Source of the DNA: a virus
IMG/VR virus record: IMGVR_UViG_3300035099_000181
Coordinates: 37,071 to 101,070 of that record
Length of the DNA: 64,000 nucleotides
Direction: 5' to 3' (one strand)
The notes beneath the pieces were generated by a model that was not told the origin of the DNA, did not search any database, and was given only the letters and a program-made list of their open reading frames with translations. Positions 15,501 through 64,000 of this stretch are shown here, piece after piece. The position numbers and the translations under genes are program-made. Numbering within the stretch: position 1 is the first letter of the stretch; each line of letters begins with the position of its first letter.

Positions 15501-18500
15501 ATGAACTTTTGTCATCTTCATGTTCATGATCAGTATTCACAGCTTGATGGATACGGTTCAGCAGAGCAGTATGCTGATGAAGCATCTCGTTTAGAATTCA
15601 CCCATCTTGCTCTGACTAATCATGGAAATGTCGATGGGCTGATTAAATTTCAGAAAGCTTGCTTAGGTAAGGATATAGTGCCTATTTTGGGAAGCGAGTT
15701 ATATGTGGTGCCTGATATTTCTATTAAGGAGCCAAAGGAAAAACGCTATCATATTACTGTTCTGGTGAAGAACAATGAAGGCTTTTCTAATCTTCTGCGA
15801 ATGCTCACTAAGGCCAACTTGGAAGGTTTTTATAAGCGCCCTCGTGTTAGTCCGGACATGCTTTTGAAATATTGTGGTGGCCTGATTTTTATGACCGCTT
15901 GCACATCTTCTATAGTCTATATGTCAAAGGGTAGGGAGCTGGTTAATGAGCTTGGAGATGCTACTGGGGGAAATATCTATCTTGAAATAATGCCTCACGA
16001 TTATTCTGATCAAAAGAAGTTGAATAGATTGCTGCTGGTTATGTCCAAGAAGGATGGATTGCCTTTAGTGGCCACTAACGATTGTCATTATCCTTTGTCT
16101 AAGCATACAAAAGTTCAGGAAGTTCTTCTGGCTATTCAGCGTAAGGCGAAATGGATGGATAAAGATAGATGGCGATTCGAGATAGATGGTCTTTATCTTA
16201 GGACCGAGAAGGAAATGGAAGAGGCATTTCTGAGGCAGGGTATAATTCCACAGAGATTGTTTGCGGAGGCTTTGGTTAGAACTTCAGAAATAGCAAGTAA
16301 ATGTGGTGGATATAAAATAGAAAAACGCTCTGTCATTCTGCCTAAAGTCTCGGGATACGAGGATAGGGATGAGACAGAACTGATGTGGGAAATAGTTAAT
16401 AGAGGCCTTAAGGAGCGCCTCCTTGTTCCGGGAACAATAAGCAGGGATCAGTTGCCTGCTTATCGTTCTCGGATTAAGGAAGAGATGGATCTTATCTGCG
16501 AACTTGGCTTTCAAGGATATTTTCTAATAGTTTGGGAGCTGATAGATTGGTGCAAAAAGAATGATATTATGACTGGACCTGGCCGAGGGTCTTCCGGAGG
16601 CTCTCTTGTGGCATATCTTATGCGAATAACTGACGTAGATCCTATAAAGTATGGTCTTGTGTTCGCAAGATTTATCTCTCCTGCCAGGATAGATTTGCCA
16701 GATATAGATATGGACTTTGAGGACATAAAGCGAGATAGGATAAGGAAACACCTTGAAGATAATTATGGTAAGTTCAATGTGTCTGGACTTTCTACCTTTG
16801 CGAAAATGAAGGGTCGCGGAGCTATACGGGATGTAGCAAGAGTTTTTGATGTTCCTATTTTGGATACAGACAAATGCGCTAAGGCAATAGTTGTAAGATC
16901 TGGCGGAGATTTTAGATCCTCCTATACGATAGAAGATGCCTGCAAGACCTTCGGCGATGCAATAGATTTCAATAAAAAATATCCAGAAGTTGTAAGTATA
17001 GCACAGGATTTGGAGGGGACACTAAGGGCTAGTGGGCAGCACGCAGCAGCTATTTGCATCTCTTCCGAGGATCTGAGAGAGGGCCTTTGGTGTCATCTTT
17101 GCAATAGGAAAGGAGTGGTTGTCGCTAATTGGGAAAAGTCAGATGCCGAATATATAGGGCTGATGAAATTGGATATTCTGGGTCTTACGGCTTTGACTAT
17201 ACTTAATTACACTAAGAAACTTCTTAAGGAGAGGCGGGGGGTCTCTATAGTGTTTGATGATATACCTCTGGATGACGAGAAGGTTCTTAGCGAGATAGCT
17301 GCTGGCAATAATGTTGGTGCTTTTCAGATCGGTTCTTCGGGTCTGATGAAACTGTGTAGGGAAATGAAGGTGAAGGAATTTAACGACATAGTCCTTGCAT
17401 CAGCCTTATTCAGACCTGGGACATTGCGCTCGGGAATGGTAGAGGAATTTATACAGAGAAGGACAGGGGCAGCCCCTGTGAAGTATATTCATCCATTGCT
17501 TGAGCCTTTAACTAAAGAGACACTGGGAATTATTCTGTATCAAGAACAGGTCATGTGGCTTATGTACGAGCTTGGTGGGTTGGGGTGGAAGACATGTGAC
17601 ACTGTTCGGAAGGTTATCAGTAAGTCACAAGGTGATGAATTGTTTGGAAGGTTCAAGCAGCTATTTATAGATGGCTGCCAAGAACGGAAGACTCTTTCAG
17701 AGAAAGAGGCAGATAAGGTTTGGGATCAGTTGAGCAGCTTTGGAAGTTATTCATTCAACAAGAGTCATGCTGTAGAATATTCTCTTATAACCTTTTGGAT
17801 GATGTGGCTTAAGGCGCATTATCCAAAAGAGTACTTATGTGCAAGTCTGACATTTACAGGAGCAAATGATAAGGCTAGCTATATAGATGAAGCCAGAAGG
17901 CTGGGGCTATCAATAGAACTTCCGCGTGTTGGTATTTCCAAAGCAACTGAGTGGATTTCCTCTATTGCTGATGATGGGAAAATATTTGCCCCATTTTCAG
18001 AGATTAAAGGCATAGGAGAGGCTTCCGCTAGGCAACTGGAAAAAGCCAAATTGGGTTTTAAGAAGGGCTTTTTTAGAAGTAGAGAATTTCAGTTTGGTGA
18101 AGGCCGTAGGCCAAACAGCATGATTATGTCTGTTCTGGAAGAGATTGGTGCCTTGGGTAACAAGGAGCTTACTGATTCAGAACTGGAGAAAGCAAACAAA
18201 TATTTTGATTTTGATCTATCAAAAGATAAGATGGGTAAATACTCCAAATTATTTCAGAGGCTGAAAGAAAGCATGATTCTTAGCTGTGTGAAAGACATAG
18301 ACTATCAAAAGCCAAGCACAGATGAGCATTATTATTTTGGGCAAATGACCGAGGTGAAATTTGGATATAGGCAGGCAGTCTTAAAGGCACAAAAGAGCGG
18401 AATGGGCGATATTTCTGGCACAGATAATCTTGGCGGGGTGTATGGCAATTTCAAGGACGAAACAGATTTTACTATGCTGATTTTTGGAGGAGAGCTTTAT

Positions 18501-19259
18501 CAAAGAAAAAAGGCAGATGTAGAGCATTGTGCTGGTGATTGGATTTTAGCTAAAGCTAATCATCCTAAACGGAAGACTGCAATATTGGCTAACGATGCTT
18601 GGATAGGAAAAGAACTTTTATCCTGTGATTTGGAAGGTTGTAACATTGAACTTATTTCTAATAGTCATCCTTGTGTCTTACCAAATATAGATAAATGTTC
18701 ATTGTGCTCTTTAAGATCAGAATGCAAAAGACCTGTTCCAGCCTCTCCCGGTAAATATAATGTCATGCTGATAGGCGAAGCGCCAGGAAAAGAGGAGGAT
18801 CTTAAAGGGATAGGATTTATAGGCAAGGCAGGGAGCGAAGTGCTGTGGCCTGAGCTGGCTAAGTACCGTCTTGATAGAGAGATGTTTCATATCACCAATA
18901 TTGTAAAGTGCTGGCCAAGTAATACAAAAACTCCTTCTAAAAAGCACATATTTGAGTGCTCTTCTATTATCAAGGAAGAGATATCCTCCGTTAGGCCAGT
19001 TCTCGCCTTGGCCTTCGGGAATACTAATGTTAAGTTCTTCAAAGGTTTGGATAGTGGGATTATTGGCCTTAACGCCACGACGGAATGGTCTAATGAATAT
19101 GGAATGTGGATATGCTGGTGCATTCATCCGGCTGCCGTTCTTTATCAGCAGCCTAACTTAGATCTGTTTTCTGCTGGAATAGAGAATTTTGTTAAGAAGC
19201 TGAGTTATATTGCTGGAGATAAGTTGTCCTTTCCTTTTACAAGAAAGAGAGAAGAATGA
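15501..19259 (+). CDS. dnaE: DNA polymerase III alpha subunit fused to a C-terminal family-4 uracil-DNA glycosylase domain
   Basis: PHP HLHVHDQYS, GPGRGSSGGSLVAY, PDIDMD, KLDILGL, YSFNKSHAVEY; C-terminal CSLC...GEAPG...TNIVKC...C...HPA (UDG4). Confidence 0.93.
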   Translation: MNFCHLHVHDQYSQLDGYGSAEQYADEASRLEFTHLALTNHGNVDGLIKFQKACLGKDIVPILGSELYVVPDISIKEPKEKRYHITVLVKNNEGFSNLLRMLTKANLEGFYKRPRVSPDMLLKYCGGLIFMTACTSSIVYMSKGRELVNELGDATGGNIYLEIMPHDYSDQKKLNRLLLVMSKKDGLPLVATNDCHYPLSKHTKVQEVLLAIQRKAKWMDKDRWRFEIDGLYLRTEKEMEEAFLRQGIIPQRLFAEALVRTSEIASKCGGYKIEKRSVILPKVSGYEDRDETELMWEIVNRGLKERLLVPGTISRDQLPAYRSRIKEEMDLICELGFQGYFLIVWELIDWCKKNDIMTGPGRGSSGGSLVAYLMRITDVDPIKYGLVFARFISPARIDLPDIDMDFEDIKRDRIRKHLEDNYGKFNVSGLSTFAKMKGRGAIRDVARVFDVPILDTDKCAKAIVVRSGGDFRSSYTIEDACKTFGDAIDFNKKYPEVVSIAQDLEGTLRASGQHAAAICISSEDLREGLWCHLCNRKGVVVANWEKSDAEYIGLMKLDILGLTALTILNYTKKLLKERRGVSIVFDDIPLDDEKVLSEIAAGNNVGAFQIGSSGLMKLCREMKVKEFNDIVLASALFRPGTLRSGMVEEFIQRRTGAAPVKYIHPLLEPLTKETLGIILYQEQVMWLMYELGGLGWKTCDTVRKVISKSQGDELFGRFKQLFIDGCQERKTLSEKEADKVWDQLSSFGSYSFNKSHAVEYSLITFWMMWLKAHYPKEYLCASLTFTGANDKASYIDEARRLGLSIELPRVGISKATEWISSIADDGKIFAPFSEIKGIGEASARQLEKAKLGFKKGFFRSREFQFGEGRRPNSMIMSVLEEIGALGNKELTDSELEKANKYFDFDLSKDKMGKYSKLFQRLKESMILSCVKDIDYQKPSTDEHYYFGQMTEVKFGYRQAVLKAQKSGMGDISGTDNLGGVYGNFKDETDFTMLIFGGELYQRKKADVEHCAGDWILAKANHPKRKTAILANDAWIGKELLSCDLEGCNIELISNSHPCVLPNIDKCSLCSLRSECKRPVPASPGKYNVMLIGEAPGKEEDLKGIGFIGKAGSEVLWPELAKYRLDREMFHITNIVKCWPSNTKTPSKKHIFECSSIIKEEISSVRPVLALAFGNTNVKFFKGLDSGIIGLNATTEWSNEYGMWICWCIHPAAVLYQQPNLDLFSAGIENFVKKLSYIAGDKLSFPFTRKREE

Positions 19260-24416: not shown

Positions 24417-24965
24417 ATGTCAAGAAAGAAGATGCACGAGGAGCCGAAAAGGGTTTACGCATGGAGGGACGGTAGTGGGAAGCGGTTTGGGAAGTTTGAT
24501 GCCCAACCTGCGGGCGAGGAAGTGGAGAAGCTTCAGAAGTTACATGGGCATGAACTTGAGCCTGCGGACGTTGTGGAGGCGGCAGCAGATGAGAAGAATG
24601 TTCTGCATGACTTATTCGAGTGGGACAATCTGAAGGCCGGACACGAATGGAGGCTGCAGCAGGCGCGTTTCCTTTTGCAGTCCCTCAAGGTGACGATCAC
24701 TCATTATGATGGGAAGACGATCACGTTGGATCGGGCGACGGCGGTGCTTCCCGCCAAGAATGGTTCAGGCGGGAAAAAATATGTCATGATGGAACGGGCG
24801 ATGCGGGATGCGGACAGCAGGAACTATCTGCTCCGGGTGGCGTTGCTTGAGGCCATCGCGTTCAGGAACAAGTACAAGGAGCTGTCGGAACTGACGAAGA
24901 TCTTTGTCGAGATTGACCTGGCATACAAGGAGCATGCCGGGGAACTGAAGCAGTGCGTCATGTGA
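24417..24965 (+). CDS. Hypothetical protein associated with the pentamer-repeat/RAMP locus
   Basis: GGAGGG RBS; LEPADVVEAAADEKNVLHDLFEWDNLKAGHEWRLQQARFLL; ends 4 nt before array 1. Confidence 0.75.
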   Translation: MSRKKMHEEPKRVYAWRDGSGKRFGKFDAQPAGEEVEKLQKLHGHELEPADVVEAAADEKNVLHDLFEWDNLKAGHEWRLQQARFLLQSLKVTITHYDGKTITLDRATAVLPAKNGSGGKKYVMMERAMRDADSRNYLLRVALLEAIAFRNKYKELSELTKIFVEIDLAYKEHAGELKQCVM

Positions 24966-24969
24966 TTCT

Positions 24970-25637
24970 GGCATGGCAGAGCGGAGTAGGGATAGGTTGA
25001 GTAAAGCAAAGCAAGGCAGGCGGAGCGAAGCAGAGCATAGCAAAGCCAAACAAAGCAAGGCAGGCGAAGCGGAGCACAGCGGAGCAAAGCAGAGCCGAGC
25101 AAAGCAAAGCAAGGCAGGCTAAGCGAAGCAGAGCCCAGCACAGCCCAGCAAAGCCCAGCAGAGCCTAGCAAAGCAAGGCAGGCGGAGCATAGCCTAGCTT
25201 AGCCGAGCAGAGCCAAGCACAGCTAAATAAAGCAATGCAGGCAGAGCTTAGCTTAGCGTAGCCCAGCCAAGCACAGCCAAGCAAAGCAAGGCAGGCTAAG
25301 CTTAGCATAGCTTAGCAAAGCTAAGCAAAGCAAGGCAGGCCAAGCGGAGCCGAGCACAGCATAGCTTAGCAAAGCCAAGCAAAGCAAGGCAGGCCAAGCG
25401 GAGCCGAGCACAGCAGAGCTGAGCTGAGCCAAGCAAAGCAAGGCAGGCAAAGCATAGCGCAGCGCAGCTTAGCAGAGCGTAGCGAAACAAAGCAAAGCAG
25501 GCCAAGCGTAGCATAGCAAAGCAAAGCGTAGCTGAGCCAAGCTGAGCGAAGCAAAGCAAGGCAGGCTAAGCAAAGCGTAGCTCAGCCAAGCGTAGCCTAG
25601 CAAAGCTCAGCTAAGCAAAGCAAGCAAAGCAAGGCAG
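24970..25637 (+). repeat. Array 1 of AGC-NN pentamer units (12 units incl. a degenerate first one); candidate guide ncRNA array
   Basis: Units GGC-NN-(AGC-NN)n-AGC-AA-AGC-AA-GGCA; constant trinucleotide alternates with a variable dinucleotide. Confidence 0.9.
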
Positions 25638-25703
25638 AAGGCGATTGGCAGTCGCCTATCGCCAATGGGTTTCATTTAACAGGAATCAAGAAGGAGAAAT
25701 GTC

Positions 25704-26423
25704 ATGGCAAGGAAGGCAGTGTCAGAAGCTAACGTGGCAATTACTATTAGTTCCCCCAAGTTTGACATCTTCAAATGTTCGATAATTGGGAGTTCTCCAT
25801 TCGTGTCGAATAAGTTTTCCGAGAAGGCACGGATTATGATGGAGGAGGCCCAGATGCAGGGGCAGGCAGCCAAGACGACGAGGAAGAGGGAACCGAAGGA
25901 TTTCGAGTCTCTTTACCTCGGGTCTATGCATCTTGCGGATTCCGGTGATTGGTATGGCATTCCGTGCTCGGCCTTTAGGAGCGCCATGATCAAGGCATGT
26001 AGCATTGTTGGTGTGCATATGACAAAGGCTAAGATGTGCGTCTTTGTTGAGCCTGATGGGTTTAGCAGGGAAGGAACGGCGTTGGTCAGGATAACGAAGG
26101 GGGAACCTAAGATGTTCAAGGCGGCGGTAATATTGGCGTCTGGAGTTCCCGATATTTCCGCGCGTGGAATGTGGATGCCTGGATGGGAAGCGGAGCTGCG
26201 GATACGGTACGACTCGGATATCTTCTCTCCGGAGACCGTGGCTAACCTTCTGATGAGGGCTGGATTGCAGGTGGGAGTTGGTGCCGGTCGCCATGCTTCC
26301 GAAAGGTCGTCCGGGCAAGGGTGGGGGGAGTTCATGTTGAAGACGGATTCTCAGGATATGGGCAGGGAAGAGGGACTTGAGGCAAACCCTGTTCCAAAAA
26401 GGAGATTGAGACAGGCAGCATAG
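25704..26423 (+). CDS. Stand-alone RAMP/Cas7-like protein
   Basis: AAGGAG RBS; IIGSSPF (first RRM strand), YGIPCSAFRSAMIKAC (IPxSxxKGxxR-like), C-terminal Gly-rich loop AGLQVGVGAGR...GQGWGEF. Confidence 0.7.
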   Translation: MARKAVSEANVAITISSPKFDIFKCSIIGSSPFVSNKFSEKARIMMEEAQMQGQAAKTTRKREPKDFESLYLGSMHLADSGDWYGIPCSAFRSAMIKACSIVGVHMTKAKMCVFVEPDGFSREGTALVRITKGEPKMFKAAVILASGVPDISARGMWMPGWEAELRIRYDSDIFSPETVANLLMRAGLQVGVGAGRHASERSSGQGWGEFMLKTDSQDMGREEGLEANPVPKRRLRQAA

Positions 26424-26453
26424 GGACGCGGCGATGGCATATTCGTTTTGATT

Positions 26454-27013
26454 AAGGCAGGGTTGGCTGAGCACAGTCCGGCTCAGCTAATCCGAACAAA
26501 GCAAAGCAGGCCAAGCCCAGCATAGCCCAGCAAAGCTAAGCCGAGCTAAGCTGAGCCCAGCAAAGCAAGGCAGGCGAAGCAGAGCATAGCATAGCCAAGC
26601 AAAGCAAAGCAAAGCCCAGCTAAACAAAGCAAGGCAGGCGAAGCATAGCGTAGCAAAGCAAAGCAAAGCCCAGCTAAACAAAGCAAGGCAGGCGAAGCGT
26701 AGCTCAGCAAAGCATAGTGCAGCACAGCGGAGCCAAGCATAGTAAAGCAAAGCAAGGCAGGCTAAGCTAAGCATAGCACAGCAGAGCGTAGCAAGGAAAA
26801 GCAAGGCAGGCGTAGCTGAGCCCAGCGGAGCATAGCGGAGCAAAGCGGAGCAGAGCAAGGCAGGCGGAGCAGAGCGGAGCAAAGCGCAGCAGAGCAAAGC
26901 CCAGCATAGCGGAGCAGAGCTAAACAAAGCAAGGCAGGCGAAGCGTAGCTCAGCAAAGCATAGTGCAGCACAGCGGAGCCAAGCATAGTAAAGCAAAGCA
27001 AGGCAGGCGAAGT
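26454..27013 (+). repeat. Array 2 of AGC-NN pentamer units (9 units incl. a degenerate first one); candidate guide ncRNA array
   Basis: Same grammar and AAGCAAGGCAGGC handle as array 1; the unit starting at 26691 is repeated exactly at 26937. Confidence 0.9.
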
Positions 27014-27026
27014 CGGGAGCAAAGAG

Positions 27027-27345
27027 ATCAAGACATATTCTTACATTCTTATAGATAGTCATTGTATCGGTTATGCCTCGGCTTTTACCACCGGTAGCTT
27101 GACTCATGCTAGAGAGAATATTGGTGTCTTGTTTGGGTTCTTGAAGCAGATTCTGAATGTGGCAGAAAGGTTTGAGACTAATCGCTTCATGTTCTGTTGG
27201 GATTCAGGCAAGTCCTTACGGAAGAAGGTCTTTGCTGACTACAAGCGCAGGAAACTTATGGCCGATGAAGAGAAGGAAAAGTTCAGCTCTATCCATCGCC
27301 AGTTTCACATGATCCGCGTTTATTGAGGCATTTAAGTTGCTATGA
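27027..27345 (+). pseudogene. Truncated 5'-3' exonuclease / flap endonuclease (PolI N-terminal-like)
   Basis: YILIDSHCIGY...GVLFGFLKQIL...MFCWDSGKSLRKKVFADYKRR; no ATG start, stops after ~100 codons; possible C-terminal remnant AFIEAFKLL* in another frame overlapping the next ATG. Confidence 0.7.
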
Positions 27346-62441: not shown

Positions 62442-62990
62442 AAGTAGGCTACGAAAAACGTATTGTACTATATTTTTCCGTCTGTACTATGTTTTTCCGT
62501 ACGGCAGTGAAAAAAGTAGGCTACGAAAAACGTATTGTACTATGTTTTTCCGTACGGCGGTGAAAAAGTAGGCTACGAAAAACGTACTGTACTTTATCAG
62601 TTACGGGAAAGGAATAACAAGCTCGGAGGGTTTATGGAGGATAGGATGAAGGTGCTTGAGGAGAAGGCTGCCTTGTTGTCGGGCTCCGCGTTCAAGGTCT
62701 TGTTTCTCCTGTGCGTCGGGGCAGAGGGCAAGGCTGAATGCGTGCTGACGTATGCTCAGTTGGCTGAGAAAACCGGTCTGAAAGCTTCCCACATGCGGGA
62801 TCACGTACTGGAGCTGGAGGATAAGGGCCTGACGGAGGCGACTTACATAGCAAGAAAGGGCAGGGGAGGCGGGGGAGTTCAGCACACCTTTCGCTTGCTC
62901 ATCTGAAAGTAGGCTACGAAAAACGTATTGTACTATGTTTTTCCGTACGGCGGTGAAAAAGTAGGCTACGAAAAACGTACTGTACTATGT
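62442..62990. repeat. Five copies of AAGTAGGCTACGAAAAACGTA(T/C)TGTACT, three upstream and two downstream of a wHTH gene
   Basis: Copies near 62442, 62514, 62566, 62907, 62959; a ~78-bp block is repeated on both sides of the gene. Confidence 0.9.
62634..62906 (+). CDS. Small winged-HTH DNA-binding protein
   Basis: GGAGGG RBS; SAFKVLFLL...TYAQLAEKTGLKASHMRDHVLELEDKGL. Confidence 0.75.
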   Translation: MEDRMKVLEEKAALLSGSAFKVLFLLCVGAEGKAECVLTYAQLAEKTGLKASHMRDHVLELEDKGLTEATYIARKGRGGGGVQHTFRLLI

Positions 62991-63049
62991 GAAGCAACAT
63001 TCATAGCTAAACGAGATGGCAAAGGGGGCACAGCTCATGTTTTCCGGGT

Positions 63050-63199
63050 CTTGTTCTAGGAAAAGGCGTAACTTGTTCTAGGAAAAGGCGTAACTTGATA
63101 CGGGAAAAGCCAGAACTTGATACGGGAAAAGCCAGAACTTGATACGGGAAAAGCCAGAACTTGATACGGGAAAAGCCAGAACTTGTTCCAGGAAAAGGC
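63050..63199. repeat. 22-bp tandem repeat, ~7 copies in two variants
   Basis: CTTGTTCTAGGAAAAGGCGTAA x2, CTTGATACGGGAAAAGCCAGAA x4, then a partial copy. Confidence 0.92.
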
Positions 63200-63385
63200 T
63201 GTCAGTTAGATTTTCGGGACTCTCCCCCATCCCCGCAACACATATAGAAAAGTCACTGTACCTAGATAAGTTATTGATAACGTTAAGAAAAGACTAGCCA
63301 TGAAAAGGAGGAGAGAGACTACCACAATGATGAATGAGACAGCGAGGATCTCGGGGATGATGCAGATGGATGACGAGGTATTCAG

Positions 63386-63461
63386 GGCTTGGTTGTGACC
63401 TAAACATCGGTTACCAATCTTTAGGTAATCAGCTTCTAAGAATACTAACTAATAAGAATAT
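63386..63461. repeat. Second, non-coding copy of the initiator-gene origin element
   Basis: Matches 12166-12256 with a 15-bp deletion and a few substitutions. Confidence 0.88.
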
Positions 63462-63512
63462 CAATGAAGGACTGGCAGAGTTATCTCCGCAGACGTTCAA
63501 GTTGACGGTAAA

Positions 63513-63695
63513 AAAAACCAGGATGCAGCAAGGAAAACCAGGATGCAGCAGGAAAACCAGGATGCAGCAGGAAAGCCAGGATGCAGCAAGGGAGCGGGTT
63601 GGCAAAAGCGGGACCGGGATGGCAGGAAAACCAGGATGCAGCAGGAAAGCCAGGATGCAGCAAGGGAGCGGGTTGGCAAAAGCGGGACCGGGATG
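63513..63695. repeat. Composite tandem repeats
   Basis: AAA(A/G)CCAGGATGCAGCA x6 and GGGAGCGGGTTGGCAAAAGCGGGACCGGGATG x2. Confidence 0.88.
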
Positions 63696-63771
63696 TCAAG
63701 CCGGAGGGGGCGGGCATTTTCAAAGCGCAGGGCATTTTCTAGGAAGATGGGGCGGCAGCCTCCTCATACGT

Positions 63772-64000
63772 TATCGGAATTCCTTTCTCAAATCCGATTT
63801 TCGGAAAAATTTGATGCTAGAATTCCTTTTGGTTCCCTCATACACTATCGGAATTCCTTTTGGTTTTCTCGTATGCTATCGGAATTCCTTTCCGAGTACG
63901 GCTTTCTGGGAAAAATTTGCTATCGGAATTCCTTTCCGAGTACGGCTTTCTGGGAAAAATTTGCTATCGGAATTCCTTTCCGAGTACGGCTTTCTGGGAA
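63772..64000. repeat. GGAATTCC-containing repeats ending in a 44-bp tandem array that runs off the window
   Basis: GCTATCGGAATTCCTTTCCGAGTACGGCTTTCTGGGAAAAATTT at 63875, 63919 and 63963 (partial). Confidence 0.9.

Follow-up and report, generated by a model that had tools for sequence, protein, structure and literature searches.

A probable phage VIPR locus with AGC-scaffold guide arrays, and the association of guide scaffold with Vipr residues

Gene organization of the locus

Of a virus record of 101,070 bases, the window analysed in this study is the final 64 kb. The record has direct repeats at its ends; despite the presence of these repeats, CheckV estimated the completeness of the phage genome at 75%. 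The locus lies on the plus strand and consists of vap (24417-24965; accessory gene, 182 aa), array 1 (24970-25637), vipr (25704-26423; 239 aa), and array 2 (26460-27013), in this order. It sits amid replication and recombination genes, downstream of a RecA-family gene and upstream of a partial exonuclease gene and a resolvase-like gene. Each array opens with a degenerate leader unit (24970-25019 in array 1 and 26460-26509 in array 2). Eleven staggered units follow in array 1 (25019-25637); array 2 continues with eight such units plus the beginning of a ninth (26509-27013). Array 1 is closed by a hairpin (25639-25657); the region 25610-25700 folded with a z-score of -2.9, and 1 of 200 shuffles folded equally well. 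A promoter scan stayed at chance level, and an Rfam search gave no match. Searches of IMG/VR with protein words and with the exact pattern of the junctions found no close relative of the phage.

The exonuclease fragment (27027-27326; PF02739, E 3e-9) covers 99 aa, the N-terminal half of a 5'-3' exonuclease. It has no ATG and probably starts at an ATC located 7 nt past the terminal GGGAG of array 2; its frame closes at a TGA, and another stop is found three codons further. Elsewhere in the window, 15501-19259 presumably encodes a DnaE-like polymerase, whose C-terminal part resembles, by eye, a uracil-DNA glycosylase domain, and several tandem repeats of 19-74 nt are present in 62464-64000, close to the genome end.

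Characterization of Vipr and Vap

The 239-aa product of vipr had 1991 relatives at E 0.001, with the best protein match at 54%, and neither Vipr nor Vap matched a Pfam family. The structure of Vipr was predicted with a pLDDT of 91.9, and the best fold matches of the model were Cmr/Csm3 RAMPs (Z 11.9, rmsd 3.2, 148 aligned). A profile match to Vipr of SUSP1 was obtained at E 1e-7 over 55 C-terminal columns. In Cyanophage Cy-LDV1 and Gordonia phage ODay, the Vipr relative adjoins GGY/NN arrays whose junction is the same, and the upstream gene has a homologue there as well. By its predicted model, residue alignment, and profile match, the protein is a small RAMP protein (RRM, thumb, and G-loop) akin to Vipr.

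Vap (phrog_15946) showed 36% identity with the products of the vipr-adjacent genes of Cy-LDV1 (E 3e-17) and ODay (E 2e-16). Relatives of vap were present at 44 of 61 loci with GG scaffolds and 7 of 13 subfamily loci with AG scaffolds, that is, 51 of the 74 loci tested among the matches listed. This family recurs beside vipr and matched no named Vap type, including agp038 of SUSP1. The locus contains a single RAMP gene and no CRISPR repeats. Cas1 (PF01867) was absent from the phage genome (estimated at 75% completeness, as given above), in line with the earlier note, which had argued against Cas1-type acquisition; the control of this search was positive in 7 of 14 genomes.

Structure of the arrays

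A regular unit consists of GGC NN, (AGC NN)n, two AA pentamers, and GGC AG. Since the last G of a unit is common to the next unit, unit lengths are 5n+4, and 18 of the 19 units conformed to this junction-to-junction length. The exception is the last unit of array 1, whose end is irregular: its tail contains one four-letter repeat (25620-25627), and it closes with the hairpin, not with a junction. All 19 NN strings that had been read from the sequence were reproduced by an independent parse. The inner scaffolds of regular units were AGY in 150 of 150 positions (AGC 146 and AGT 4), while NN entropy reached 3.8 of 4 bits. The first variable NN ends in A in 13 of 18 distinct units and the last variable NN in 15 of 18; therefore, these positions carry less information than had been counted. 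The NN content is guide-like, as the earlier note had stated. GGY and AGY scaffolds occur side by side in the two leader units, as had been described, and the leader of array 1 shows GGC, AGC, AGT, GGA, and GGT. There were no runs of at least five equal-scaffold pentamers elsewhere in the phage genome. No long structured 3' tail was found: the units lie head to tail, and two units folded no better than shuffles.

In other readings, the arrays would be a microsatellite, would have arisen in assembly, or would encode the Leu/Cys/Ala-rich minus-strand ORFs. Plain (AGCNN)n microsatellites are common, a Vipr match being found at 13 of 119 viral AGC-run loci among the matches listed, and ORFs as long as 206 aa run across the arrays on the minus strand. 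These explanations are opposed by the high NN entropy beside a fixed scaffold, the regular junctions, the placement around vipr, and the identical layout at 12 other staggered AG loci among the matches listed. Read depth also agreed with the repeat structure. In run X1, a possible source of the assembly, contigs break at an exact 91-nt repeat in array 2 and at an exact 47-nt repeat (26598-26644), and these contigs cannot prove unit order. However, the repeat pieces had approximately double depth (65.6 for the 91-nt repeat and 52.9 for the 47-nt repeat, compared with 29-39 for the other listed pieces), which speaks against an artefact of assembly. From run X2, nothing but short pieces of low depth was obtained. 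We conclude that these are real guide arrays and regard the artefact, microsatellite, and coding explanations as highly improbable. Separately, a different contig with an AGC/NN-like stretch was met in X1 at a loose end at 25365, and the sample may contain a second AG-type array.

Relationships among units

The identity of two units noted earlier was verified: copy 1 (26691-26760) and copy 2 (26937-27006) are the same sequence, copy 1 lying within the exact 91-nt repeat at 26672-26762, and the duplication agrees with read depth. The shared halves of two neighbour pairs were likewise recovered. Neighbours 25338 and 25392 (25338-25446) have the first four NN, CA GG CG AC, in common, and neighbours 26573 and 26637 (26573-26691) the last five, AA AA AA CC TA. 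Among the 18 distinct units, both exceeded chance in 3000 shuffles (P 0.005-0.015 for a prefix of at least 4; a suffix of at least 5 in 1 and 0 of 3000 shuffles). Both pairs could be aligned over their whole length as diverged copies, the former with 12 of 16 variable letters identical and the latter via two pentamer indels and one substitution, and a donor of the other half was absent. Therefore, both pairs look like tandem copies that diverged, not chimaeras. Copying accounts for 6 of the 19 units, and 13 have no relative in the locus.

We compared 429 units (1934 pairs) of 63 staggered loci among the matches listed, two of these loci being close relatives. There were 3 duplicates, 7 shared 5' ends (null 0.16), and 4 shared 3' ends (null 0.01), and 9 of these 14 related pairs were adjacent. 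No three-way mosaic unit was found in the 63 loci listed. In six pairs of relatives whose Vipr proteins are 71-97% identical, no run of at least five NN was common to both members; in one of these pairs, L180 and L196, a single diverged homologous unit was visible as a run of four NN. These results indicate that NN turn over far faster than the scaffold or the protein; the refuting observation named in the earlier note, NN varying no more than the scaffold across relatives, was not made.

A distant clade of SUSP1-related Vipr proteins (L027, L058, L076, L089, L031, and L059) has AG guides with structured tails of ~60 nt and arrays of 6-10 units with shared blocks. Vipr of L027 and L058 are 97% identical. 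By eye, one L076 unit matches an L058 unit in its middle and an L027 unit at its 3' end, rare scaffold variants included. Three phages of this clade with near-identical Vipr have one identical unit and some point-changed units in common, and blocks marked by rare scaffold variants recur in new contexts (both by eye, with no null). These recurring blocks suggest that block exchange exists in AG VIPR.

The earlier note had attributed new specificities to duplication and in-register recombination; as a rival explanation, these processes, followed by selection, would be the main source of guides. In favour of this, related units within a locus occur above chance, the L076 unit is mosaic-like, and the genome has no Cas1. 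On the other hand, only 14 of 1934 pairs were related, three-way mosaics and common NN runs between relatives were missing as described above, and most units of the window stand alone. The proposal is only partly supported, since the shared halves look like diverged copies and 13 of 19 units are unrelated: duplication is real here, while recombination in this locus finds no support in pairs that align throughout, with no donor and no mosaics. We consider duplication and recombination together a possible but somewhat doubtful main source of guides. The locus shows duplication and divergence at work, which explains a minority of its units. The accessible part of the preprint on competition (10.64898/2026.10.15.759431) gives no acquisition mechanism.

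Association between guide scaffold and Vipr residues

According to the accessible part of the structural study of SUSP1, G1 is read by H17 and D177, G2 is held by R138 and W178, R179 contributes to holding Y3, and the D177A change abolishes silencing (10.64898/2026.04.26.720927). The SUSP1 record carries these published residues at their numbers, except V175 for T175. The SUSP1 residues reading the scaffold align to N36, R154, A194, G195, and R196 of the window Vipr; N36, S152, and A194 correspond to H17, S136, and D177, respectively.

To relate scaffold to protein, loci were gathered by DNA pattern (pure AG or pure GG), with flanks for 80 loci per scan; mixed arrays are therefore under-sampled. 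In addition to the viral AGC-run loci mentioned above, a Vipr match was found, among the loci listed, at 76 of 125 with a GGY junction from viruses and at 17 of 117 with an AGC junction from metagenomes. With the window and two named phages added, 109 loci were obtained, and removal of 25 partial or duplicate proteins left 23 AG and 61 GG systems.

In these 84 systems, drawn from the matches listed and the added loci, position 194 was acidic in 0 of 23 AG and 58 of 61 GG systems, and position 152 (thumb) was Arg in 0 of 23 AG and 57 of 61 GG systems. Both the G-loop acid and the thumb arginine were missing from 23 of 23 AG systems and from 0 of 61 GG systems. Inside the subfamily, the acid at 194 was found in 0 of 14 AG and 21 of 24 GG systems, with the same counts for Arg152. 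R196 was invariant (84 of 84) and R154 was kept in 82 of 84. Asn occupied the H17 position in 16 of 23 AG systems and 10 of 61 GG systems. Chemically, guanine is well matched by a carboxylate and adenine by Asn. The Asn hints at a positive reading of adenine. Thus, scaffold and RAMP protein covary, as the earlier note had thought worth testing, and this association across Vipr systems is the main new result of this study. No report of such a link was found in the literature text searched, most subscription journals and bioRxiv supplements lying outside the search.

Two observations stand against this link. L180, L196, and L197 are GG systems with Ala194, indicating that acid loss alone does not force AG, and the thumb arginine is missing from SUSP1 Vipr too. 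The arrays of L180, L196, and L197 are GG with 4-20% AG pentamers, and these systems are possible intermediates of the scaffold switch.

Two further loci came to light in the scans. In L366 (2420-2560), from an Alphaproteobacteria MAG with no Vipr match, short AG units have the AAACAAAGCAAAGCAGGC end seen in some units of the window and possibly represent a solo guide. In L050 (2490-2845, minus strand numbering), near a distant Vipr, approximately 70 AGC/NN pentamers run unbroken with no visible unit boundaries. In a GTDB scan, none of 20 pattern matches had vipr within 2.5 kb, and the scan thus yielded neither a host nor a hold-out set.

Ancestry of the AG scaffold

In a tree built without the scaffold-linked columns, the AG label requires 7 changes, at least 3 of them on well-supported branches. 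A single AG clade was rejected in a 41-row tree including SUSP1 (p-AU 7.8e-10), in which the nearest rows of SUSP1 are AG systems. AG systems are thus not one clade, indicating that the scaffold switch happened at least twice. Within the subfamily (44 rows), a single AG origin was not rejected (p-AU 0.127), and independent contrasts on well-supported branches numbered only 3 (sign test, p 0.25).

GG outgroups surround the subfamily, and GGC at the unit start is kept in 138 of 140 AG units among the matches listed; therefore, GGY is the likely ancestor. The earlier note had also suggested that AGC may derive from GGY, and this part is supported by the tree and the junction GGC, but its evidence from the leader units is not general. 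Seven other AG leader units had 3 GGY and 31 AGY scaffolds, like inner units, so that degenerate leaders as a general relic of GGY are not supported.

Search for targets

No target was found in the phage's own genome with skips of 0-3, or among the 109 VIPR loci with arrays unmasked. Three seeded scans of IMG/VR gave 0, 70, and 24 matches: the duplicated guide had none with an 18-letter seed, and a relative's guide had 70, with a best extension of 7/12. The correlation of NN frequencies with those of codon positions 1-2 was strong for GG arrays (rho 0.74), weak for other AG arrays (0.45, p 0.08), and absent for the window (0.18). Since the window NN do not track codon positions and targets are unproven, a 1-nt skip for AG guides can only be presumed.

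The remaining 24 matches raised the possibility that guides 26863 and 25338 target the ATP-dependent DNA-ligase gene of a competing phage. On IMG/VR contig G002, with a skip of 1, unit 26863 matched 22/24 and unit 25338, which was not seeded, matched 15/16 in the same ligase gene; shuffles reached such a pair in 1 of 300 cases on the contig and 0 of 300 in the gene, and the own phage genome has no match to this ligase. However, the 22/24 match is the best of 24 seeded matches, expected by chance at ~0.1, and in both cases the guide reads wobble positions, which sets these matches apart from published targets. They drop to 20/24 and 12/16 in relatives with 91% identity. In a 93-kb relative no other guide reached E 0.1, while wrong-skip controls reached E 0.003, and no further guide fitted 120 ligase proteins better than shuffles. 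We regard the ligase as a possible but rather unlikely target.

Proposed function and significance

Taken together, the locus probably encodes a phage VIPR system that has staggered arrays and a switched scaffold. By analogy with published VIPR work, the arrays would share a transcript with vap and vipr, and cleavage at the shared-G junctions would release guides of ~45-75 nt; one Vipr would bind each pentamer, hiding the three fixed letters and presenting NN, and the filament would bind dsDNA while skipping every third base and silence genes of a competing element. The first fixed letter may have changed from G to A because the G1 pocket lost its acid (Ala194, equivalent to D177) and the thumb arginine; R154 and R196, which read the second G and the pyrimidine, were retained. 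Changes in the arrays would come from duplication of whole units, point mutations, and pentamer indels, and the majority of guides would have another origin.

We tentatively propose that these residues form a small protein-RNA code of VIPR, in which loss of the acid and the thumb arginine turns G1 to A, occurred independently at least twice, blocks cross-loading between AG and GG systems, and shields the phage from hijacking by decoy guides. A comparably likely alternative is that the Vipr pocket is simply relaxed, accepting A or G, that AGC spread by copying and drift, and that the systems are not orthogonal. The GGC retained at unit starts, the GGC at 50 of the 1020 inner scaffolds that AG arrays contain (among the matches listed), the mixed leader units of the window, and the Ala194 proteins beside GG arrays are in line with a relaxed pocket. 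The inner scaffolds of the window, none of which is GGY, and the frequent Asn at the H17 position, if it reads adenine, speak against it.

VIPR is a CRISPR-related RNA-guided DNA silencer described in 2026, for which the accessible part of the structural work names the GGY-reading residues. In the accessible text on guide changes, GGY to AGY was among those tested, and perturbation of GGY abolished silencing (10.64898/2026.04.26.720920). Natural AG systems combine the two changes, each tested on its own before, of D177 to Ala (protein) and of GGY to AGY (guide), and this pairing makes for a cheap and specific experiment and possibly for orthogonal tools. If the proposed code is true, the dead D177A mutant of SUSP1 should be rescued by AGY guides, and two VIPRs could be run side by side.

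Comparison with known systems

The closest likeness is to the staggered vrRNA VIPR (10.64898/2026.04.26.720920, legend of fig. S18), which likewise combines vipr with vap, pentamer guides, one-base overlap, phage location, and lack of Cas1. YNNNG is named among alternative repeats in the methods of that preprint, and CNNAG of the window fits this class. The window differs in having 19 units in two arrays and in its AGC scaffold, which is not named in the accessible text and supplement; a link between residues and scaffold is not reported in these parts either. Non-canonical arrays (GAC/NN, CAC/NN, WGT/NN, and TGH/NN) beside a Vipr fold appear in the accessible part of another preprint (10.64898/2026.10.21.760802). 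These also have a trinucleotide other than GGY; AGC is absent from the examples in its text, and its fig. S10 may list AGC.

Compared with the type II VIPR of SUSP1, the window Vipr has the RAMP fold, the G-loop, and equivalents of R138 and R179 in common. SUSP1 has GGY guides, a pseudoknot tail, H17, and D177, whereas the window has N36, A194, no long tail, and another vap family; the ~40-nt structured 3' tail on GGY guides that defines type II is not found in the window. With the Cas7/Csm3/Cmr backbone of class 1 CRISPR, the locus shares the RAMP fold but differs as one small gene with a gapped guide code and with neither CRISPR repeats nor Cas1. The features that the window has in common with VIPR systems are a RAMP protein, the lack of an adaptation module, an adjoining vap, flanking pentamer arrays of a variant, non-GGY kind, and the one-nt overlap between units.
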